Virus record (IMG/VR): IMGVR_UViG_2585427748_000014
Coordinates: 1 to 35,993 of that record
Length of the DNA stretch: 35,993 bases
Reading direction: 5' to 3' (one strand)
DNA from: a virus
Taxonomy: Duplodnaviria; Heunggongvirae; Uroviricota; Caudoviricetes
How positions within the stretch are numbered: position 1 is the first letter of the stretch; each line of letters begins with the position of its first letter. Below the pieces are notes generated by a model, which was given only the letters and a program-made list of their open reading frames with translations, did not search any database and had not been told where the DNA came from. The position numbers were made by a program, and so were the translations under genes. Below are positions 432-32,211 of this stretch, piece after piece.

Positions 432-794
432 TTAATGACCTGCTGCGCGGAGTTTTCCGTCAGGTTCACCGGCAAGAGTCAGTAATTGTCCCTGGTCTTC
501 CTGCAGAATAGTCAGGCGACCACCGCGATTGACATACATCGGCGTTTCGGTGGTGTCTTCTTCGGAAATTTTCCCGCGGTTAGTCGGGCGAACATATGAG
601 AGTTTGTGTTTGATTTTCACACGGTTCTCATCAAATGGTTCGATTTCCAGGTTGAGTGAGACCTTACCTTTGGTTTTCGTGTTCATCACACCGGAAGCGA
701 CTTCACTGAGAACTGCGCCGATTTTGGTTTCAAATACGCCGCCGTCCAGCTCCCCAATAAATGCCTGCACATCAGTACTGCGTTCGCTAGCCAT
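432..794 (-). CDS. YfdP-like prophage protein (about 120 aa)
   Basis: ATG at 792-794 preceded by AGGAG with a 7-nt spacer; the longer ORF-track N-terminal extension looks like non-coding translation. Confidence 0.5.
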   Translation of the reverse strand: MASERSTDVQAFIGELDGGVFETKIGAVLSEVASGVMNTKTKGKVSLNLEIEPFDENRVKIKHKLSYVRPTNRGKISEEDTTETPMYVNRGGRLTILQEDQGQLLTLAGEPDGKLRAAGH

Positions 795-1232
795 TTTTCT
801 GCTCCTAATCATATCGACCCTGCAAGGTCGGTTGGTTTCTCCACAAAACAGAGAAGAACACCTGCGGTGGCAGCCGCCCGGATGGATTGGGTTATGAGCC
901 CGTCGTCCGGTGATGTTCTTCTCTGTTTTGTAAAAAGAGCGGTACCAGCCGGAAGCAAGTGTACAAACTGGTACCGCGAGGACTACACACAGCATAAAGT
1001 TGTGGTGCCGGGTGCCTCCCGGTGCCTGGCGAAAGTTGCACACCAGGCGGGTGGGTATCCACAGAAGGTCGACTGTCAGCCTCAACCTTAACCCGCGTGC
1101 GCTGAGCCGCATTCACCACAACGCTAAGGATTCTCTCTGGTTGAAAATACTTAGCTGTTATGTGCCTGTCTTTTCACCACTTCAGGCTCGGTGGTATCTT
1201 GGTGTTTTCATATAGCCAAGAAGGAAATAGTT

Positions 1233-1424
1233 ATGACCAAAGAAGAAAAAATTCTTTATTTATTCCAACTATCGGTTAAGACTCACACTGCATATCAGAC
1301 TGCTGCCATGACATCAGATAAAAATTACAGTACGTCAGAAAACCCGATAGACGACATAAGCAAGCTTTACGATAAGTTCGAAGCACTACTCGATAAAAAG
1401 TTTGCTGAGGCTGGGCTTGAGTGA
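1233..1424 (+). CDS. Small hypothetical protein (63 aa), A+T-rich
   Basis: ATG at 1233 with AAGGA 7 nt upstream; its 3' end overlaps a convergent small ORF. Confidence 0.3.
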   Translation: MTKEEKILYLFQLSVKTHTAYQTAAMTSDKNYSTSENPIDDISKLYDKFEALLDKKFAEAGLE

Positions 1425-1562
1425 TTGTTGAATAATCGACAAAACCCAACTTAAATTTTCGTCAGTGGGCTCGATGCCATGTGCGGTGAGCTCACTTTTC
1501 AAAACTCCAAGCAATTCAGAGCTGATTTTCAATATATCTGCTTGATTTCTAACTATTCCCAC
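1386..1562 (-). CDS. Small hypothetical protein (about 59 aa from GTG 1562; 68 aa if from ATG 1592), same strand as cI
   Basis: AGGGAGGA sits 5 nt upstream of GTG 1560-1562; N-terminus has basic residues (MTARRPREEK). Confidence 0.3.
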   Translation of the reverse strand: MGIVRNQADILKISSELLGVLKSELTAHGIEPTDENLSWVLSIIQQSLKPSLSKLFIE

Positions 1563-1775
1563 TTTTTCCTCCCTTGGTCTACGCGCGGTCATGTTTTACG
1601 CCCAAACGACTTCACAGTTATTGTTTAAAATCTGGACTTTCATTTCATACACCTGCTTTAACATGAGTGCCTAGTGGCACAACATGACTCAACGAATCAT
1701 CCTGGACTTCATATGCCCCAGGCGGCTACTTCGTGGGCGTCCTGCCTGTTCGTTATCTTTGATATAAAATCTAAC

Positions 1776-2573: not shown

Positions 2574-2774
2574 ATGACAACTGACGATATCGAAAGCTAC
2601 TTCGGCAGTATTGAGAAAGTTGCTGCTTTTTTCGGCATAACAACTGAAGCCGTTTATCAGTGGCGAAACCGTCCGGGCCAGTTAATTCCAAAAGGACGTG
2701 CAGCAGAAGCTGCATATAGAACTTGCGGACGGTTGCCATTTAAACCTGAGCTTTATGAAAAATCTAATGGATAA
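2574..2774 (+). CDS. cro: Cro-like DNA-binding regulator (Cro/YdaS-type HTH)
   Basis: 66-aa ORF divergent from cI; GGAGG 4 nt upstream; HTH-like segment VAAFFGITTEAVYQWRNR. Confidence 0.75.
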   Translation: MTTDDIESYFGSIEKVAAFFGITTEAVYQWRNRPGQLIPKGRAAEAAYRTCGRLPFKPELYEKSNG

Positions 2775-3363
2775 ATCGATTAACAGAAACCACAGAACGA
2801 TGAGGCTAACCGTGGGTAAGCATCACTGGAAAGTAGAAAAACAGCCTGAGTGGTACGTGAAAGCTGTCAGAAAAACTATCGCAGCGTTGCCGGGTGGTTA
2901 CGCTGAAGCAGCTGACTGGCTGGATGTAACAGAAAACGCATTATTTAACCGTCTTCGTGCCGATGGCGATCAGATTTTCCCGCTGGGATGGGCAATGATT
3001 TTGCAACGTGCTGGTGGAACTCACTTCATTGCTGACGCTGTGGCGCAGTCTGCAAATGGCGTCTTTGTGTCTCTTCCTGACGTCGAGGATGTGGACAACG
3101 CCGATATTAACCAGCGCCTGCTGGAAGTCATTGAACAGATTGGCAGTTATTCCAGACAGATTCGTTCGGCAATCGAAGACGGTGTGGTGGAACCGCATGA
3201 GAAGACAGCAATTAACGACGAGCTGTATCTCTCAATTTCGAAGCTGCAGGAGCATGCAGCACTGGTCTACAAAATCTTTTGCATTTCAGAAAGTAATGAC
3301 GCCCGCGAGTGTGCAGCTCCGGGCGCCGTGGCGTGTCGTGACTGTGGAGAAACTAACGCATGA
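2755..3363 (+). CDS. Hypothetical early regulatory protein (possibly YdaT/CII-like); start uncertain (2755, 2767 or 2800)
   Basis: Long ORF immediately after cro; no strong Shine-Dalgarno, so translational coupling is possible. Confidence 0.45.
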
Positions 3364-5140: not shown

Positions 5141-5793
5141 TGAGTAATAAATATTGCCAGGCGCTGGTGGAGCTGCGAAACAAACCAGCCCATGAACTGA
5201 AGGAAGTGGGCGATCAGTGGCGCACGCCGGACAACATTTTCTGGGGAATTAACACCCTGTTTGGCCCGTTTGTTCTGGATCTGTTCACTGATGGTGATAA
5301 CGCCAAATGTGCCGCTTATTACACTGCGGAAGACAACGCGCTGGCGCATGACTGGTCTGAACGTCTTGCGGAGCTTAAAGGTGCTGCCTTTGGTAATCCC
5401 CCGTACAGCCGCGCCAGTCAGCATGAGGGGCAATACATCACCGGCATGCGTTACATCATGAAACATGCCAGTGCTATGCGTGATAAAGGCGGGCGCTATG
5501 TTTTCCTGATCAAAGCTGCCACCAGCGAAGTTTGGTGGCCGGAAGATGCAGACCATATTGCTTTTATTCGCGGGCGTATTGGTTTTGAACTGCCAGCCTG
5601 GTTTATCCCGAAGGATGAGAAGCAGGTTCCGACAGGAGCTTTCTTCGCTGGTGCTATTGCTGTTTTCGACAAGACCTGGAAGGGACCGGCAATCAGCTAC
5701 ATCGGGCGCGATGAACTTGAGGCATGTGGTGAGGCCTTTCTGGCGCAGGTTCGCCAGCAGGCAGAAAAACTGGTCAGGGAGATGGTGGCATGA
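5140..5793 (+). CDS. Phage DNA N-6-adenine methyltransferase (Dam-like)
   Basis: NPPY motif (GNPPYS); start overlaps the upstream stop (TAATG); GGGGG Shine-Dalgarno. Confidence 0.8.
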   Translation: MSNKYCQALVELRNKPAHELKEVGDQWRTPDNIFWGINTLFGPFVLDLFTDGDNAKCAAYYTAEDNALAHDWSERLAELKGAAFGNPPYSRASQHEGQYITGMRYIMKHASAMRDKGGRYVFLIKAATSEVWWPEDADHIAFIRGRIGFELPAWFIPKDEKQVPTGAFFAGAIAVFDKTWKGPAISYIGRDELEACGEAFLAQVRQQAEKLVREMVA

Positions 5794-23601: not shown

Positions 23602-25426
23602 ATTTGAGCTTAAGGCGTTGATCACCGGTGTCGACAGGCTTTCTCCCGCGCTGTCGAAAATGCAAAAGAAAATCCGGGGATTTAAACGCCAGGCGGAAGA
23701 AGCGTCACAGGGTGGGCTGGCGCTTGGTGGCGGACTGGCAGCGGGTCTGACGCTTTCCCTGAAATCTTATGCCGATCAGGAAAACGCCGCCACCGGGCTG
23801 AAAGTCGCCATGATGGATGCGAATGGCGAGGTTGGAAAGAGCTTTCAGGACATCAATAAACTGGCTATTGGCCTGGGTAACCAGCTACCCGGTACAACGG
23901 CTGATTTCCAGAACATGATGCAGATGCTGGTGCGTCAGGGGATCCCGGCAGAAAACATTCTTGGCGGTGTGGGTAAAGCGACAGCTTATCTTGCGGTACA
24001 ACTGAAAAAAACACCGGAAGCGGCTGCTGAGTTTGCTGCAAAGATGCAGGATGCTACCGGAACGGCGTCAGAAGACATGATGGGGCTGTTCGACACTATC
24101 CAGAAGGCGTTTTATCTGGGCGTTGACGATACCAACATGTTGTCCTTCTTCACTAAAACCAGTTCTGTTCTGAAGATGGTGAACAAGGACGGTCTTCAGG
24201 CTGCACAGAGCCTTGCCCCCATCAGCGTCATGATGGATCAGATGGGGATGAACGGGGAGTCGGCAGGTAATGCCCTGCGAAAAGTTATCCAGTCCGGATT
24301 AAGCGTTAAGAAAATCAGGGACGTCAATAAAATCATGGCCCGCCAGAAACTCGGGGTACAGCTCGATTTTACTGACGGCAAAGGAAGTTTTGGCGGTCTT
24401 GATAACATGTTCAGGCAACTGGCAAAGCTGCGAAAACTGACCGACGTTAAGCGAACAGGTGTACTTAAGGCAATATTTGGTGATGATGCCGAAACCCTTC
24501 AGGTGGTCAATGCACTAATCGATAAAGGAAAGGATGGCTACGATCAGATCCAGCAGAAGATGAATAAACAGGCCAGCCTGAATAAACGTGTTCAGGCCCA
24601 GCTTGGTACGCTGTCCAACCTGTGGGAGGCAATGACGGGGACCGCAACTAACGGCCTTGCGGCTATTGGCGGCGCATTTTCTGGTGACGCCAAAAATATC
24701 ACGCAATGGCTGGGGGAGTTGGGGGAGAAATTCACGAAGTTTGCGGATGAAAATCCCCGGGTTATTCGCGGCGTCGTCGGGCTTGCTGCCGGTCTTGCGA
24801 TTCTGAAACTGGGATTGATGGGCGTGGGCAGTGCCATCAGTATCGTCAGCAGGATCATGTCGATGACGCCGATTGGCATGATTGCGACGGCGATTGCCCT
24901 GGCTGCGGGATTAATTATCACTAACTGGGATGTTGTCGGACCTTATTTTAAGAAACTCTGGGAAACCATTAGTCCTTATTTTGAGGCTGGCTGGGAACTT
25001 CTGAAGAAGGTTTTTGCCTGGTCGCCGCTGGGGATGGTGATCAATAACTGGGGACCGGTTGTTAAGTGGTTTCAGGATATGTGGGATAAGCTGAAGCCGA
25101 TTATTGAATGGTTTACCGACAGTTCCGGTGACACGGTCGATGCCATTAACTCGGCGCAGTGGGGCGCGGGTGCTTATGATGCTTATGGGACGGGAATACC
25201 GGCACGGGGATACACGCCTTATCCGGCGGTGGATCCGGCTCAGGCAAACAACGCCTCCGATGCCACAGGCTCGAATCCCTTCATGATTAATAAAGCTACC
25301 GCGCCAAAAGTTGATGGTGAGATCAAGGTATCATTTATAAATATGCCACCAGATATGCGGGTTACGGAAACACGCTCCAGTGGCATTGATATAAATCACG
25401 ATGTTGGCTATACCCGATTTTGGTAG
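23594..25426 (+). CDS. Tail tape measure protein
   Basis: 610 aa; Ala/Gly/Gln-rich helical repeats and a central hydrophobic segment. Confidence 0.85.
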   Translation: MAEFELKALITGVDRLSPALSKMQKKIRGFKRQAEEASQGGLALGGGLAAGLTLSLKSYADQENAATGLKVAMMDANGEVGKSFQDINKLAIGLGNQLPGTTADFQNMMQMLVRQGIPAENILGGVGKATAYLAVQLKKTPEAAAEFAAKMQDATGTASEDMMGLFDTIQKAFYLGVDDTNMLSFFTKTSSVLKMVNKDGLQAAQSLAPISVMMDQMGMNGESAGNALRKVIQSGLSVKKIRDVNKIMARQKLGVQLDFTDGKGSFGGLDNMFRQLAKLRKLTDVKRTGVLKAIFGDDAETLQVVNALIDKGKDGYDQIQQKMNKQASLNKRVQAQLGTLSNLWEAMTGTATNGLAAIGGAFSGDAKNITQWLGELGEKFTKFADENPRVIRGVVGLAAGLAILKLGLMGVGSAISIVSRIMSMTPIGMIATAIALAAGLIITNWDVVGPYFKKLWETISPYFEAGWELLKKVFAWSPLGMVINNWGPVVKWFQDMWDKLKPIIEWFTDSSGDTVDAINSAQWGAGAYDAYGTGIPARGYTPYPAVDPAQANNASDATGSNPFMINKATAPKVDGEIKVSFINMPPDMRVTETRSSGIDINHDVGYTRFW

Positions 25427-25454
25427 CCAGGATTCCCCTCACAGGTATTGCTGG

Positions 25455-25482
25455 TTGTAAGTCATAAATAGAGTGATAGAAT
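25455..25482 (+). promoter_or_regulatory. Candidate sigma70 promoter for the tail-module moron (-35 TTGTAA, 16-bp spacer, -10 TAGAAT)
   Basis: Hexamers read from the sequence upstream of the gene at 25518. Confidence 0.4.
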
Positions 25483-25517
25483 TAATGCACATTTAGAAAA
25501 ATGTTAATAGGCGAAAA

Positions 25518-26048
25518 ATGAAAGGCTATATCACAGCAAGTGTAATTCTTGGAGCAGCGGCTATTTTTTCATCTCTCATAATCTCTGGCAACATCTCCTT
25601 TAAAGATGAACATATTATTCAGTTATCTGGAGGAGCCATAAAACTTGGTGATGTTTATAAAGAAAATAAATTGATAAGTGCAAAGATTATTTTTCCAGAT
25701 AATCAGGGTGAACAGATTCTTGTTGTCGACGGCAATCCTGAAAACTTTAAGGAGGATTTTCAGGAGAAATTAAATAAAGTAATAAAAACTTTAAATGCGT
25801 CAAAGAAAAAAGATGAAGAGAAAGTTAGCCTGGATAATTTAAGTGTTATTGAAGAGTCTAAACTAGAGCTCGTTTCTGCGGTGCGTTACTCTGCTCAGTA
25901 TGTTCCTATGTTTACTCTGACGCTGGACAAAAAAGAAATTACCATGCCTAAAAATACGGTAATATTTCCATTTGCCAGCGATGAAACAGCTAAGTATTTA
26001 AATGAACAACAGCAAAAGTATAAAGATTCGTTGTTTCTGACTCGCTAA
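25518..26048 (+). CDS. Hypothetical signal-anchored or secreted protein (176 aa), A+T-rich moron inside the tail module
   Basis: N-terminal hydrophobic signal/anchor; Lys/Glu-rich body; A+T-rich; own promoter-like element and terminator. Confidence 0.55.
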   Translation: MKGYITASVILGAAAIFSSLIISGNISFKDEHIIQLSGGAIKLGDVYKENKLISAKIIFPDNQGEQILVVDGNPENFKEDFQEKLNKVIKTLNASKKKDEEKVSLDNLSVIEESKLELVSAVRYSAQYVPMFTLTLDKKEITMPKNTVIFPFASDETAKYLNEQQQKYKDSLFLTR

Positions 26049-26066
26049 TTAATAAAATTCATTACA

Positions 26067-26100
26067 AGGCCACCTTCTAATAGGTGGCTTTTTTATTTTC
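26067..26100 (+). terminator. Rho-independent terminator (AGGCCACC...GGTGGCTT plus T-run)
   Basis: Stem-loop followed by TTTTTTATTTT. Confidence 0.65.
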
Positions 26101-26109
26101 GGAGTGTAT

Positions 26110-27438
26110 ATGACGTGGAAAGACAGGCTTCAGGATGCGTCATTTCGAGGTGTGCCGTTTAAGGTTGAAGAAGAAAGTGCGGGAACCGGTCGCCGTGTGG
26201 AAACACATGAATACCCGAACCGCGACAAGCCCTATACCGAAGATCTGGGAAAAGTCACTTTCCGCCCGTCCATCACAGCTTATGTGGTGGGAGATGACTG
26301 CTTTGACCAGCGCGATCGCCTGATTGAAGCGCTGAATAAACCCGGTCCCGGCAAGCTTGTCCACCCGACATATGGTGAGCTGAAAGTCTGTGTTGACGGG
26401 GAAGTTCGGGTCAGCACATCGAAAAGTGAAGGGCGTATTGTCCGCTTTGACCTGAAGTTTGTCGAAGCAGGAGAACTCTCTTACCCCACATCAGGTGCGG
26501 CGACGGCGCAGACGCTGATGTCATCCTGTTCTGCACTGGATGACTGCATCAGTGACAGTTTCAGTGGTTTCAGTATCGATGGCGTGGCGGATTTTGTGCA
26601 GAACGACGTCGTCGGTAATGCCAGCACAATGCTTGGGTATGTTTCTGATGCGATGAAAGTGGTGGATTCTGCCGTATCGGATGCCGCCAGACTGTTGCAG
26701 GGGGATATCTCGGTACTTCTGCCGCCGCCATCGTCAGGCAAAAATTTCGTTGAGCAGGTGCAGAAAATGTGGCGTACCGGGAAGCGCCTTTATGGTAACG
26801 CCAGCGACCTGGTCACCATGATCAAAACGCTTTCCGGTGTCAGCCTCGGCAGCGATCTGCAACCGCGCGGCGTCTGGAAAACGGACAGTAAAACCACCGC
26901 CACGGCTACGCAGCAGCGTAACGTGGTTGCCAGCACCCTTCGTACGACCGCAATCAGCGAAGCGGCGTATGCCGTCACCCGATTGCCTGCGCCAACAACT
27001 TCCGCGGTGATGCAGAATGCCGCAGTGGGGCAGGCAACAACACCTGCGCAGAGCACTGGCTGGCCTTCCGTCACGCATCCGGCACTGAACAATGCACCGG
27101 CGGTGAAAAACACAGTTGACCTGCCGACGTGGGAAGAACTGACTGACATTCGCGACACACTGAATACGGCAATTGATAAGGAGTTGTCCCGTACAACCAG
27201 TGATGCGCTGTTTCTGGCGCTGCGCCGGGTGAAAGCAGATCTGAATGCGGATATCAACACGCGCCTTGAACAGTCTGCACGGATCATTCAGCGCACGCCG
27301 GATGAGGTTTTACCCGCGCTGGTGCTGGCGGCGACCTGGTTTGATAACGCGGCGCGTGACGCGGACATTATCCGGCGTAATGCCATTACGCATCCCGGCT
27401 TTGTGCCGGTGATCCCTCTGAAGGTGCCAGTGCAATGA
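26110..27438 (+). CDS. DNA circularization protein (Mu gpN-like)
   Basis: GGAG Shine-Dalgarno; position after the tape measure gene. Confidence 0.75.
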   Translation: MTWKDRLQDASFRGVPFKVEEESAGTGRRVETHEYPNRDKPYTEDLGKVTFRPSITAYVVGDDCFDQRDRLIEALNKPGPGKLVHPTYGELKVCVDGEVRVSTSKSEGRIVRFDLKFVEAGELSYPTSGAATAQTLMSSCSALDDCISDSFSGFSIDGVADFVQNDVVGNASTMLGYVSDAMKVVDSAVSDAARLLQGDISVLLPPPSSGKNFVEQVQKMWRTGKRLYGNASDLVTMIKTLSGVSLGSDLQPRGVWKTDSKTTATATQQRNVVASTLRTTAISEAAYAVTRLPAPTTSAVMQNAAVGQATTPAQSTGWPSVTHPALNNAPAVKNTVDLPTWEELTDIRDTLNTAIDKELSRTTSDALFLALRRVKADLNADINTRLEQSARIIQRTPDEVLPALVLAATWFDNAARDADIIRRNAITHPGFVPVIPLKVPVQ

Positions 27439-28514
27439 ACGATAACGTCACGCTACGGGTAAATGGCCGGGAGTGGAATGGCTGGACATCGGTGCGCATC
27501 GGTGCCGGTGTTGAACGACTGGCGCGGGATTTCAGTGTGGAGATCCCCCGCCAGTGGCCGGGAGATGATGGTATCACCACGCTTCAGCCGCGCATTAAAA
27601 ATGGTTCAAAAGTGGAAGTGCTGATTGGTGATGAGCTGGTGATCACCGGCTGGGTGGAGGCGACCCCCGTTCGTTACGATGCCCGTTCGGTCAGCACCGG
27701 TATTGCCGGACGTAGTCTGACCGCTGACCTGATTGACTGTGCAGCCGAACCGACACAGTTTAACGGACGATCGCTGGTACAGATTGCGCAGGCGCTTGCT
27801 GCGCCTTTCGGCATTGAGGTGGTGAACAGCGATGCGCCGTCGGGTGTTATTCCGGATGTCCAGCCTGATCACGGTGAAACGGTGATCGAGGTGATCAACA
27901 AAATACTCGGTCAGCAGCAGGCGCTGGCTTATGACGACCCGCACGGCAGGCTGGTGATTGGTGGTATTGGCTCAACGCGGGCACATACCGCGCTGGTACT
28001 TGGGGAAAACATCCTTTCCTGTGATACGGAGAAGAGTATCCGGGAGCGGTTTTCAGTTTACCAGGTGGCGGGGCAGCGTGCCGGAAACGACGATGATTTC
28101 GGTGAGGCCACCACCACCGCGCTGCGGGCCCGCACAGAGGATGCATTTATTGCCCGTTACCGTCCGATGTATATCAGGCAGACAGGGCAGGCTACGGGGG
28201 CAGGCTGTATTGCGCGTGCTGACTTTGAAGCCCGACAACGGGCGGCGCGGACGGATGAAACCACCTATGTGGTGCAGGGCTGGCGACAGGGTAACGGTAC
28301 GCTGTGGCAGCCCAACCAGCGGGTGATTGTCTTCGATCCGGTCTGTGGTTTCGACAATACCGAACTGCTTGTCTCGGAAGTCACGTTTACTCAGGACCAG
28401 AATGGCACCCTGACGGAAATCCGTGTCGGCCCGCCTGATGCTTATCTGCCTGAACCCGAAGATCCCGGCGCGCGGAAAAAGAAAAAAGCCAGAGTACAGG
28501 AGGACCCGTTCTGA
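27435..28514 (+). CDS. Baseplate hub / tail protein (Mu gpP-like)
   Basis: 359 aa; ATGA overlap; conserved Mu-like order. Confidence 0.75.
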   Translation: MNDNVTLRVNGREWNGWTSVRIGAGVERLARDFSVEIPRQWPGDDGITTLQPRIKNGSKVEVLIGDELVITGWVEATPVRYDARSVSTGIAGRSLTADLIDCAAEPTQFNGRSLVQIAQALAAPFGIEVVNSDAPSGVIPDVQPDHGETVIEVINKILGQQQALAYDDPHGRLVIGGIGSTRAHTALVLGENILSCDTEKSIRERFSVYQVAGQRAGNDDDFGEATTTALRARTEDAFIARYRPMYIRQTGQATGAGCIARADFEARQRAARTDETTYVVQGWRQGNGTLWQPNQRVIVFDPVCGFDNTELLVSEVTFTQDQNGTLTEIRVGPPDAYLPEPEDPGARKKKKARVQEDPF

Positions 28515-29062
28515 TGAGGACGATTGAAGCAATGCAGCGACAACTTCTCGGCCTGATTGGGCGGGCAGTGGTGAAAAGCATCAGTGCCGCCACGAAATGT
28601 CAGACCGTGGATGTGTCCCTGATTGCCGGTGAACCCAAAGCCGGGGTTGAACATCTTGAACCCTACGGTTTTACCGCAAGGGCAAACAGCGGTGCGGAAG
28701 CGGTGGTGTTGTTTCCGGATGGCGACCGTTCTCACGCGGTGGTTGTTACGGTGTCGGACCGTCGCTACCGCCTGAAAGGGCTGCAGACGGGTGAGGTGGC
28801 TGTCTATGACGATCAGGGGCAGTCCGTGACGCTGACCCGGGAGGGGATCGTGGTGGACGGTGCAGGTAAAACGATCACGTTTCGCAATTCACCTAAAGCA
28901 CGTTTTGAAATGGACCTTGAAGTGACCGGACAGGTGAAAGACCTGTGCGACTCCGGCGGTACCACCATGTCAGCGATGCAGCTTGCCTATAACGGGCATC
29001 GTCACAGAGAGAACGGTCAGGGCAGTAACACCGACAAACCTGATAAAGCGATGGAGGCATGA
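28514..29062 (+). CDS. Baseplate spike/assembly protein (gpV / Mu gp45-like)
   Basis: 182 aa at the conserved position. Confidence 0.7.
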   Translation: MRTIEAMQRQLLGLIGRAVVKSISAATKCQTVDVSLIAGEPKAGVEHLEPYGFTARANSGAEAVVLFPDGDRSHAVVVTVSDRRYRLKGLQTGEVAVYDDQGQSVTLTREGIVVDGAGKTITFRNSPKARFEMDLEVTGQVKDLCDSGGTTMSAMQLAYNGHRHRENGQGSNTDKPDKAMEA

Positions 29063-29487
29063 TGGAACTGTGGCTGACGGTGAACGGTAAACGCACCTGC
29101 GCCAGCGCACAGCTGGATCCGCTGACCCGCGCCGTGGTGATTTCCCTGTTTACCTGGCGGCGGGCGGAGCCTGATGACAACGCCGACGTCCCGATGGGAT
29201 GGTGGGGGGATACCTGGCCTGCGGTACAGAATGACCGTTACGGCTCCCGACTGTGGCTGCTTCAGCGCAGCAAACTGACCAATCAGCTGGTGCAGACGGT
29301 AAGGGGGTATATCCGCGAATGCCTGCAATGGATGATTGATGACGGCGTGGTGTCCCGTATTGATCTGGATATCCGCCGCACCGGGATTAATGAACTGGGT
29401 AACAGTATCACTCTCTGGCGTCGTGACGGACCGGTAATGATTTCTTTTGATGATCTGTGGAGTGCGATAACGCATGGCGGACAGTGA
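29059..29487 (+). CDS. Baseplate protein (Mu gp46-like)
   Basis: 142 aa; ATGA overlap. Confidence 0.65.
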   Translation: MMELWLTVNGKRTCASAQLDPLTRAVVISLFTWRRAEPDDNADVPMGWWGDTWPAVQNDRYGSRLWLLQRSKLTNQLVQTVRGYIRECLQWMIDDGVVSRIDLDIRRTGINELGNSITLWRRDGPVMISFDDLWSAITHGGQ

Positions 29488-30532
29488 ATTTCAGCGCCCG
29501 ACGCTGGCAGAAAATATCAGTATGCTCCGTAACGATTTATTCGCCAGGCTGGACGTCAGCAACACGCTCCGGCGCATGGATGAAGACGTGCGGGCAAAGG
29601 TGTATGCGGCGGCGCTGCATACGGTTTACGGGTACATCGATTATCTGGCAATGAACATGCTGCCTGACCTGTGCGATGAGTCCTGGCTGGCGCGACATGC
29701 TGCGATGAAACGGTGTCCGCGCAAGGGGGCCACGGCTGCCAGCGGGTATATGCGCTGGGAAGGTGTCAGCGATGGCCTGAAGGTGACCGCCGGGAGTGTT
29801 ATTCAGCGCGATGACCTGGTGCAGTACACGGCAACTGCCGATGCAACCAGCTCCGGTGGTGTCCTGCGCGTGCCGATCGCCTGCTCAAGTGCAGGCGCGG
29901 TCGGTAACGCTGACGACGGTACGTCATTAATCCTGGTCACGCCGGTGAATGGTCTGCCGTCTTCCGGCGTGGCAGATACACTGACAGGTGGATTTGATAC
30001 TGAAGAGCTGGAAACGTGGCGCGCCCGCGTCATTGAGCGGTATTACTGGACGCCTCAGGGCGGGGCTGACGGGGACTATGTCGTCTGGGCTAAAGAAGTG
30101 CCCGGCATTACCCGCGCATGGACATACCGACACTGGATGGGAACGGGGACTGTCGGTGTGATGATTGCCAGCAGTGACCTGATTAATCCCATTCCGGAAG
30201 AATCAACGGAAATGGCGGCAAGACAACATATCGGGCCACTGGCCCCGGTGGCAGGCTCTGATTTGTATGTGTTCAGGCCGGTGGCGCATACGGTGGATTT
30301 TCATATCCGTGTGACGCCGGATACACCAGAAATACGGGCTGCCATCACCGCCGAGTTGCGTTCGTTCCTGCTGCGTGATGGTTATCCGCAGGGAGAACTG
30401 AAGGTGTCGCGTATCAGTGAAGCGATTTCCGGTGCGAACGGGGAATACAGCCATCAGTTGCTTGCACCGGCAGACAATATCTCCATTGCAAAAAATGAAC
30501 TGGCGGTACTGGGGACGATTTCATGGACGTGA
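29474..30532 (+). CDS. Baseplate J-like protein (Mu gp47-like)
   Basis: 352 aa at the conserved position. Confidence 0.8.
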
Positions 30533-31107
30533 CAAACGATGATTACATCCGTCTGTTGTCGGCACTGTTGCCCCCCGGTCCGGCGTGGTCAGCCAGCGAT
30601 CCGGCGATTGCCGGTGCGGCACCGTCATTAACCCGCGTTCATCAGCGTGCGGATGCCCTGATGCGGGAGCTGGATCCGCGCACCACCACTGAACTGATAA
30701 ACCGCTGGGAGCGTCTGTGCGGCCTGCCGGATGAATGTATTCCTACAGGGACACAGACCCTTCGCCAGCGTCAGCAACGGCTGGATGCGAAGATTAATCT
30801 GGCGGGCGGCATTAATGAGGATTTTTACCTTGCACAGCTTGCTGCCCTGGGCAGACCAGACGCCACCATCACGCGATACGATAAAAGCACGTTCACCTGC
30901 TCATCTGCCTGTACTGACGCGGTGAATGCGCCGGAATGGCGGTATTACTGGCAGGTCAACATGCCAGCCGCCACCAACACCACCTGGATGACATGTGGCG
31001 ATCCCTGTGATTCCGCACTGCGTATCTGGGGCGACACCGTTGTCGAGTGTGTGCTTAACAAACTCTGCCCTTCGCATACCTACGTAATTTTTAAATATCC
31101 GGAGTAA
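30523..31107 (+). CDS. Tail protein (Mu gp48-like, YmfQ/DUF2313 family)
   Basis: 194 aa between baseplate J and the tail fibre. Confidence 0.7.
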
Positions 31108-31110
31108 TCC

Positions 31111-32211
31111 ATGCATCGTATAGACACGAAAACCGCGCAGAAGGATAAGTTCGGCGCGGGTAAGAACGGTTTTACCCGTGGTAACCCCCAGACCGGCACG
31201 CCTGCCACCGATCTGGATGATGACTACTTTGACATGTTGCAGGAAGAACTCTGCAGCGTGGTGGAGGCATCCGGTGCCAGCCTGGAGAAGGGGCGGCACG
31301 ATCAGCTTCTTACCGCGCTTCGTGCGCTGCTGTTAAGCCGCAAGAATCCGTTTGGCGATATCAAATCGGATGGCACTGTGCAAACGGCTCTCGAAAACCT
31401 GGGAATGACAGACATTCTGAATGATAAACAGGATAAAAATGATAATCTGACATCATTGTCGAGCTTAACAGGAATACCGGATGGGCTGGCATTTTTTACA
31501 GGTGCTGGAACAATGGATATGACAGCGCTGACTCAAAATGGTAGGGAAATTTTAAGTAAAAAAAACGTATCGGAAACTCTACAATATTTAACACTTGGTG
31601 ATGGAACAGGAAGGCTTTTGGGGGTTCAGGTATTTGGATCATCTGGGACTTATCACAAATCACCTGGTGTAACGAAAATTATAGTGGAAGCCGTTGGCGG
31701 TGGTGGTGCCAGTGGCAATTTATCAGCAACAGCCTCAAATAACTGTGGTGTAAGTGCTGCCGGTTCCAACGGGGCATATGCTAAAGCATTTTTTTATCAG
31801 TCTATACCTGAATCCGTGCAAGTAACTATTGGAAGCGGTGGTGTAGCAGGAACAGGACCAGGAGGCTCTGGAGGTGACGGCGGGAATACAAGCTTTGGTG
31901 ATTTGCTTGTATGCCCGGGAGGAAGGGGATCAACTCAAGTTCAGCAGGTACCTCCATTTTCAGGGGGAAGTGCAACAGAAGCACCAATTCCTACAGGGCA
32001 AGGGATTCTGTTCCATTCAGTTTCACGATCAAATTTATGTGGGGCACTTGGACTTGGTGATGATCAGGCGATTGGCGTTGAAAGTATAACCACTACTATG
32101 CTTGGGACATACGGTATTGGCGGGACAGGGAAATACAATAAGGCGTCATCAGGCCCAGCGACAGGAAATAATGGAAATCAGGGATATATTCTTGTGTGGG
32201 AGTATCAGTAA
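31111..32211 (+). CDS. Tail fibre protein (conserved N-terminus, divergent Gly-rich A+T-rich C-terminal domain)
   Basis: N-terminus [47 protein letters not shown] typical of fibre N-termini; composition changes at about 31380. Confidence 0.8.

Follow-up and report, generated by a model that had tools for sequence, protein, structure and literature searches.

The window, by which we mean the whole stretch of 35,993 nucleotides (nt) analysed here (IMG/VR record IMGVR_UViG_2585427748_000014), is an SfV/e14/ST64B-type lambdoid prophage of Escherichia coli, and the subject of this study is the leader at positions 795-1232 in its early-left operon. The leader is placed between the gene of a cI-like S24 repressor (2476 to 1850, minus strand) and yfdP (432-794, minus strand), which encodes a protein of 120 aa and was identified from the list of open reading frames (ORFs), from phrog_204 and from the PGAP name 'protein YfdP' in relatives. 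yfdP is the first conserved gene 3' of the leader, with the ribosome-binding site AGGAG at 806-802 (minus strand). Because yfdP runs from 794 to 432 on the minus strand, 795-1232 is its upstream leader and has to be read on that strand. An earlier note on this DNA had described a GC-rich leader of about 440 bp with a perfect inverted repeat. On re-reading the sequence, the feature upstream of yfdP is real and as described, with a GC content of 0.52-0.565 over 700-1200 against 0.36-0.48 in the flanks. The leader is matched in 2785 of 5426 complete E. coli genomes and in 76 phage records, which include SfII, SfV, SfIV, mEp460, cdtI, Stx2c-converting phages and ST64B as well as Klebsiella, Cronobacter and Citrobacter phages.

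We show that the leader is made of two independent RNA modules, both structured and both read on the minus strand: an STnc100-family RNA with its terminator (module 1) and, behind it, a three-way-junction RNA (module 2). We are close to certain that the leader is a functional structured RNA of the minus strand. A structured non-coding RNA had been among the options of the earlier note and was the right one, although it had been put forward as a single feature without a strand, and two consecutive minus-strand modules were found in its place.

Coding potential of the leader

The claim that the leader holds no convincing ORF stands in so far as no frame is open in relatives; all three are interrupted in e14, ST64B and three further related loci from other genera (L023, L031 and L033). 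It needs to be qualified in that a formal ORF of 226 aa (432-1112, minus strand) does exist in the window and continues in frame into yfdP. The PHROG match of this ORF covers only residues 103-225, which is the YfdP part, and the N-terminal 102 residues gave no family match in the PHROG search. Since the frames are broken in relatives and the PHROG match is confined to the YfdP part, the stretch is non-coding, and the suggestion of a decayed gene found no conserved frame to support it. The homologous stretch of e14 in K-12 is annotated as 'ymfH' (L002 2497-2808), and PGAP places a 'frameshifted hypothetical protein' over homologous DNA in other strains; both calls are probably annotation artefacts over the RNA leader.

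At the 3' end of the leader, an in-frame ATG at 812-810 (minus strand), 18 nt 5' of the yfdP start (ATG ATT AGG AGC AGA AAA ATG), is a possible alternative start of yfdP, and the Shine-Dalgarno sequence of the main start falls within the segment that begins with this alternative start (window 810-812).

Structure and conservation of the two RNA modules

Module 1 (930-1152, minus strand) was matched by the Rfam family STnc100 (RF02076) over 1152 to 930 with 48.5 bits against a gathering score of 47 (E = 1.2e-7), and the match is full-length, covering model positions 1-206 of 206. The search of Rfam covariance models, which the earlier note had proposed as a check, thus identified this family, and gave none for the inverted repeat. 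The module is a multibranched fold closed by a 9-bp helix (999-1007/1114-1122), with the internal hairpins CCGGG-AGGCA-CCCGG (1008-1022) and GCCUGG...CCAGGC (1024-1048). The GC-rich palindromes that had been reported near 1010-1070 do exist and are hairpins of this STnc100-family RNA. The intrinsic terminator of the STnc100-like RNA (932-977, minus strand) was recognised from its inverted repeat and from the terminator part of the Rfam alignment; its stem pairs GCGGUACCAG (977-968) with CUGGUACCGC (948-939) and is followed by the U-tract UCUUUUU (938-932).

For module 1, RNAalifold was run on the copies of the window, e14, ST64B and Buttiauxella, on two more distant ones (L023 and L033) and on a pair of canonical STnc100 copies in IMG/VR contig L102. 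Nine of the 23 shared pairs carry compensatory changes, which fall in the closing helix, the first hairpin and the last one when compared with the canonical copies. The alignment of relatives, another check proposed beforehand, therefore revealed compensatory changes in this module as well as in the junction described below. Among about 37 loci, none outside the E. coli type scored above the STnc100 threshold, which was not reached by ST64B or by the copies of other genera.

STnc100 is a prophage-borne, multi-copy RNA whose expression has been studied by RNA-seq and Northern blot; EDL933 has 11 expressed copies, of which one was confirmed by Northern blot (PMC5331693). It is related to PasD and has been found flanking Pas small RNA (sRNA) genes near Q and the lysis genes (bioRxiv 10.64898/2026.05.13.724894). 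Module 1 shares with STnc100 and PasD the closing helix UGGUGAAU...CACCA, the first hairpin, the CCGGG-AGGCA-CCCGG hairpin and the terminal intrinsic terminator, and like the EDL933 copies it is borne by a prophage. In contrast, the hairpins in its middle part are different, its place is between the repressor gene and yfdP rather than near Q and the lysis genes, and the two canonical copies in L102 have no three-way junction behind them. Module 1 is one more member of STnc100, already known as a prophage RNA, and its location is unusual.

A weak candidate sigma-70 promoter (1144-1172, minus strand) consists of AAGACA (1172-1167), a 17-nt spacer and TATTTT (1149-1144). It matches 8 of 12 consensus positions, is below the scan threshold, and has a -10 hexamer that is not conserved in other genera; its geometry is the same as that of the TTGACT/TTGACA elements before the canonical STnc100 copies in L102. 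AAGACA-17-TATTTT may be the promoter of the STnc100-like RNA, and the position of the canonical L102 copies just 3' of TTGACT/TTGACA would fit a PR'-type leader RNA.

Module 2 (838-936, minus strand) was delimited by RNAfold, RNAalifold, covariation and the covariance model R1. Its basal helix P1 (936-912 with 862-838) has 25 bp, holds the inverted repeat and takes in the U-tract of the terminator, which is paired to conserved GUGGAGA. H1 is composed of 910-906/882-878, an internal loop and an apical stem-loop, GGG-CUCAUAA-CCC; H2 (877-864) is a variable hairpin, and a single unpaired A stands on each side of the junction (911 and 863). The inverted repeat is perfect, as had been noted, and the 53-nt spacing between the arms given at the time is correct, whereas its length is 18 bp (843-860/914-931) and not 17. 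A repeat search extended the arms to 25 nt with 88% complementarity (843-867 and 907-931), and chance alone would not be expected to produce a perfect inverted repeat of 18 bp within 438 bp. The minus-strand hairpin folds with -51.2 kcal/mol in RNAfold, against -24.9 ± 3.2 kcal/mol in 200 dinucleotide shuffles, none of which was as good (z = -8.3). The inverted repeat was also considered as an intrinsic terminator and rejected; the hairpin leads into GGAGAAAC when read on the minus strand and into A-rich sequence (GTAAAAAGAGCGG) when read on the plus strand, and it is absent from the terminator scan.

Relatives were taken from the yfdP loci of 31 genome contigs and from IMG/VR loci holding the 15-mer GCTCATAACCCAATC. 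The covariation set of 27 sequences represents more than 10 genera, among them Escherichia, Salmonella, Kosakonia, Phytobacter, Mangrovibacter, Leclercia, Enterobacter, Atlantibacter, Superficieibacter and Pseudocitrobacter, and 97.7% of its cells are paired, compared with 90.6% in shuffles and 44-60% when the partners are slid. Changes on both sides were found in 14 of 35 pairs (7.2 ± 1.5 in shuffles, with 0 of 500 reaching 14, and 1-5 when slid) and in 60 cells (15.6 in shuffles), figures that have to be read with the fact that the aligned sequences are related prophage copies, so that shuffle statistics overstate their independence. Several pairs of the junction are invariant U·G in the alignment of the long-stem form (defined below), and R1 scores the window at 113.4 bits on the minus strand and 41.9 bits on the plus strand. 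Invariant U·G pairs together with this strand difference indicate that the structure belongs to one strand, as RNA or as single-stranded DNA of that strand, and is therefore not a site in duplex DNA. The recombination or regulatory DNA site once offered as an option is not supported, on the same evidence, as invariant G·U pairs become C·A mismatches on the other strand and the sense and antisense scores stand at about 113 and about 40 bits.

No Rfam 15 family matched the junction in the whole window at the gathering threshold, over 600-1900 at E <= 10, or in about 37 related loci, and the hairpin itself gave at E <= 10 just a chance match to a microRNA model (E = 1.2). A second copy in the window was found neither by pattern nor by R1 or BLAST, and no published description of the junction was found in the searched library of literature on ymfH, yfdP, phage initiator-tRNA mimics and tRNA-like holin leaders. 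The junction is a well-supported and widely conserved RNA motif that is apparently undescribed.

The apex of H1, C-GGG-CUCAUAA-CCC (889-902, minus strand), was defined from the alignments and the verified sequence of tRNAfMet, which was confirmed as an annotated tRNA-Met gene with a median of 4 copies per genome. Read from 902 to 889, it is identical at 14 of 14 nt to nt 28-41 of E. coli tRNAfMet, a likeness that covers three G-C pairs plus the CAU anticodon loop. By our estimate, about 1e-3 matches of a 14-mer of the 99-nt element to any E. coli tRNA would be expected by chance, and the 16-mer of the apex occurs once in the window. Within the long-stem alignment, no copy departs from CUCAU (loop positions 32-36, with the CAU anticodon) and GG/CC except that of the defective prophage e14, in which the helices are kept and the loop is degraded (UUAAUAA). 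Loop positions 37-38 are variable (AA, UA or UC), the AAUC flanking the apex is also conserved, and a loop segment of 16 nt shows no variation between genera or between the two operon contexts of the motif. The three G-C pairs closing a 7-nt CUCAUAA loop are what an initiator anticodon-arm mimic would present, in a functional analogy for which there is no curated family. As for a tRNA or tmRNA gene proper, ARAGORN found 0 genes in the window and no Rfam tRNA match was obtained at E <= 10 over 600-1900.

Genomic context of the junction and its neighbours

The gene behind the junction was recorded for 127 copies with a callable downstream ORF. It is yfdP in 94, rdgC in 15, an HD hydrolase gene in 8 and xis in 2, the last in e14, where the intervening genes are deleted; the remainder are genes for small membrane or holin-like proteins. 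In the early-left operon it is a long-stem form that stands before yfdP, rdgC or the HD hydrolase gene. A short-stem class, with 58 loci in a second scan, has a P1 of only 6 bp that is often followed by GCC(A), stands mostly before holin-like genes and lies between Q and the holin gene in late operons. It keeps the same three helices, with 99.4% of cells paired and 4 compensated pairs at low diversity. Both classes occur in contig L130, the long-stem form before rdgC in the early-left operon and the short-stem form between the Q antiterminator and a class-3 holin, while in phage vB_EcoM-689R2 the order is Q, two terminators, the junction (3013-3067), a small hairpin, a Shine-Dalgarno sequence and the holin gene.

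A hairpin with a U-run lies directly 5' of the junction in at least 95 of 129 unique copies, a lower bound because the terminator heuristic undercounts (for example the L157 type). What stands 5' of the terminator varies, with an STnc100-like body in the E. coli type and other sequence elsewhere. The mEp460, cdtI and Stx2c phages share only 795-977 with the window, that is, the junction plus the terminator, and therefore a boundary of a mosaic module is located there. The junction lies 75-215 nt 5' of the start codon. Taken as a whole, the junction is itself a mobile module, usually placed right after a terminator and before the first gene of an operon.

Several relatives show other arrangements. 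A Buttiauxella prophage (L010 2819-3003, plus strand) has the STnc100-like body joined directly to GGAGAAC...yfdP, without terminator or junction, so the two modules are separable. In a Phytobacter ursingii prophage (L020 2722-2800, plus strand), a tRNA-Ile(AAU) with the unusual anticodon AAT occupies the STnc100-like slot directly 5' of the junction, and in L077 a copy of the motif lies about 250 nt 5' of a tRNA-Gln. Related loci also carry the Salmonella prophage sRNAs isrK (L004/ST64B 5232-5308, plus strand, 64.3 bits) and isrI (L141 13836-13932, minus strand, 99.9 bits) according to Rfam, both unrelated to the leader.

Between the junction and the yfdP ribosome-binding site, the alignment of relatives revealed a small covarying hairpin, CGACC-UUGCAG-GGUCG (815-830, minus strand), with the variants CGACC/GGUCG, GGCGG/CCGCC and GCCCC/GGGGC. 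In many relatives the loop of this hairpin (UUGCAG or UGGCAG) is like that of H2, which gives the impression of a duplication.

On the other side of the leader, two small hairpins (1198-1220 and 1175-1196; CUUGG/CCAAG and UACCAC/GUGGUG) were recognised by BLAST conservation in several genera and by compensatory changes seen by eye; they lie 5' of the STnc100-like RNA, overlap the 5' untranslated region (UTR) of the divergent plus-strand ORF, and may act on either strand. Compensatory changes in them were seen in Kosakonia, which has two tandem copies, and in Mangrovibacter, Atlantibacter and Superficieibacter. The right boundary of the leader is a small ORF of 63 aa (1233-1424, plus strand), with an ORF at the same start in relatives. 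It is convergent with a 68-aa ORF (1386-1592, minus strand) and overlaps it by 39 nt between the leader and the repressor gene; the two match PHROGs of unknown function, phrog_2605 and phrog_15476. Beyond the repressor gene lie a cro-like gene (2574-2774) and a CII-like gene (2698-3363).

Possible function of the junction

Considering the above results, the best overall explanation, in which we place middling confidence, is a read-through-dependent and cis-acting junction behind an STnc100-like sRNA and its terminator. Transcripts that stop at the terminator would yield the STnc100-like small RNA, and the junction would be present only in read-through (antiterminated) transcripts, in which it may form a self-folding element of the 5' UTR that sets in cis the fate of the downstream operon mRNA. 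For the action in cis on the downstream operon taken by itself, we consider the chances to be about even. It is further conceivable, and speculative, that the junction has a fail-safe role, as leaky read-through into the holin gene or into xis-int would be harmful in lysogens.

Two routes could lead to such an effect. The first would be processing or stabilisation of the mRNA, with the 25-bp helix as a predicted substrate of RNase III; this enzyme takes at least about 20 bp of near-perfect double-stranded RNA, which P1 of the window offers by its sequence and the 6-bp stem of the short-stem class does not. In the latter form, the 6-bp stem followed by 3' GCC(A) resembles an RNase P substrate. 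In the second route, the invariant initiator-like anticodon arm would be shown to a conserved host factor, most likely the 30S P site, and would tune initiation at the first gene. The 30S P site and MetRS are universal host components that read the anticodon arm of tRNAfMet. As the loop is invariant in two types of operon and before unrelated first genes, a conserved host component is favoured over a phage-specific RNA target, and the distance of 75-215 nt to the start codon favours the ribosome as the reader.

Whether the loop works as an initiator-tRNA mimic is a more delicate matter, and we regard it as possible but doubtful. A fuller version of this idea, which appears to us rather unlikely, is that the junction is a phage mimic of the initiator anticodon arm that is read by the 30S P site with IF3, by MetRS or by an anticodon-arm nuclease, and that, from its place at the head of operons gated by a terminator, it gates or recruits ribosomes on the first gene in the manner of an internal ribosome entry site (IRES) or shields phage translation from a defence directed at the initiator tRNA. 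Mimics of tRNA anticodon arms in mRNA leaders and elsewhere include the thrS operator, viral tRNA-like structures and PKI of the dicistrovirus intergenic-region (IGR) IRES. The junction is similar to them in its hairpin apex, with GGG/CCC and CUCAUAA, and in its Y-shaped fold with an acceptor-like basal helix. It differs from a tRNA in having neither D nor T arm, in line with the ARAGORN and Rfam results, and it differs from the known mimics in that the initiator would be mimicked here, in a phage operon leader.

Several points weigh against this account, the mechanism as a whole being what we infer from sequence comparison. The late operon of the window itself has no junction, which is hence dispensable there. 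With a basal helix of anywhere between 6 and 25 bp, cleavage by RNase III cannot be what all copies have in common. No covariation is seen in the GGG/CCC stem, some lineages have lost its third pair (CGG...CCC), and the complementarity between the loop and downstream start regions is not clearly above background. On the side of module 1, the STnc100 score is borderline, the module stands in the early-left operon and not in the usual place of STnc100 in the late region after Q, and it may be read either from its own candidate promoter or from PL.

Among other explanations, we consider it improbable that the junction is a trans-acting decoy, an excised RNA that mimics the anticodon arm of tRNAfMet and soaks up or inhibits a factor acting on the initiator tRNA, such as a PIN nuclease of the VapC/MvpT type, and thereby protects phage translation. 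VapC homologues of Shigella and Salmonella cut tRNAfMet between the anticodon stem and the loop (PMC8522696), which speaks for a decoy together with the 14-nt identity of the apex to the anticodon stem-loop, the position of the element where the two most strongly transcribed phage operons begin, and a stable basal helix that would protect the excised RNA. However, VapC is accessory and not universal in hosts with the junction, positions 37-38 beside the reported cut site are variable, and the fixed place just 5' of the start codon suits a role in cis better.

The C4 antisense RNA of P1 and P7 and the CI RNA of P4 (RF01695) are embedded in leaders, consist of a basal helix and two hairpins, and lie in the same operon as their targets. 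A processed antisense RNA of this kind, excised by RNase P and pairing through its loop with a site in its own operon, so as to keep the first genes from being translated or transcribed, seems to us an equally improbable reading of the junction. The likeness is found in the leader-embedded position and the basal helix with two hairpins, and in the RNase P-type GCC(A) that follows the stem in many short-stem copies. Moreover, in many yfdP genes GCUCAU can pair with the start-codon sequence AUGAGY, and CCC with GGG of the Shine-Dalgarno sequence (-10 to -13 kcal/mol). Against this, the mean duplex of loop and start region has -9.2 kcal/mol compared with -7.5 kcal/mol for the background, of which 30% of windows are as good, and the loop is invariant though the downstream genes and start regions differ. 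There is only one conserved loop in the junction and no convincing complementary target: no extended complement of the loop was found in the window, where GGGTTATGAG with up to 1 mismatch occurs at chance level, and the Rfam C4 model gave no match at E <= 10.

A third reading to which we assign a similarly low probability is a processive antitermination or anti-pausing RNA (put- or EAR-like) or a nut-like site, in which RNA polymerase, or a phage or Nus factor, would be bound by the junction as it emerges during transcription, with read-through as the result. The position at the start of long operons, whatever the first gene, and loop nucleotides whose invariance suits a conserved host machine are consistent with this, as is the lack of an evident N gene beside PL in these SfV/e14/ST64B-type phages, judged from the ORF list and PHROG matches. 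The put elements of HK022 are likewise two-hairpin nascent RNAs of about 70-100 nt that head lambdoid early operons with no evident N, but they lie 5' of the terminators that they suppress and come as putL plus putR (PMC9378689). The junction, in contrast, is located after the leader terminator, is single in the window with no copy in the PR operon, and coexists in Q-controlled late operons with Q, which is already antiterminating. In addition, H2 is too variable for a second contact arm, and R1 found nothing in the HK022 immunity region (stretch 24000-32000), in agreement with the absence of similarity to it.

That the junction is a functionless relic, for instance what is left of a phage gene resembling tRNAfMet or of att DNA derived from a tRNA, which has travelled with the neighbouring terminator, is very unlikely. 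The sequence does look tRNA-derived, a real tRNA is found in the neighbouring slot of one relative, and the loop is degraded in the defective prophage e14; on the other hand, compensatory changes keep all three helices, the 16-nt loop segment is invariant across genera and two operon contexts, and neither ARAGORN nor the Rfam tRNA model finds a tRNA. Finally, a decayed or unrecognised ymfH-like protein gene or a DNA-level site (operator, recombination site or bidirectional terminator) is scarcely credible in spite of the ymfH and PGAP annotations and the 226-aa ORF that is open in the window, as every frame has stops or frameshifts in relatives, the ORF extension has no family match, substitutions keep base pairs and not codons, the G·U asymmetry excludes a symmetric site in duplex DNA, and no U-run follows 3' of the hairpin on either strand.

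Phages that carry the junction motif include serotype-converting phages of Shigella, Stx2c-converting phages and ST64B-type phages of Salmonella, and many further prophages of Enterobacterales have it too. Its recognition corrects the annotation of K-12 'ymfH' and of the 'frameshifted hypothetical protein', which lie over RNA structure. If the initiator likeness is functional, we know of no earlier case, in bacteria or phages, of an mRNA leader mimicking the anticodon arm of the initiator. The junction marks the entry of read-through transcription into the early-left operon, toward xis and int, and into the lysis and late operon. For this reason, an understanding of the junction could bring to light a step in the control of prophage induction and lysis timing that has so far gone unrecognised.

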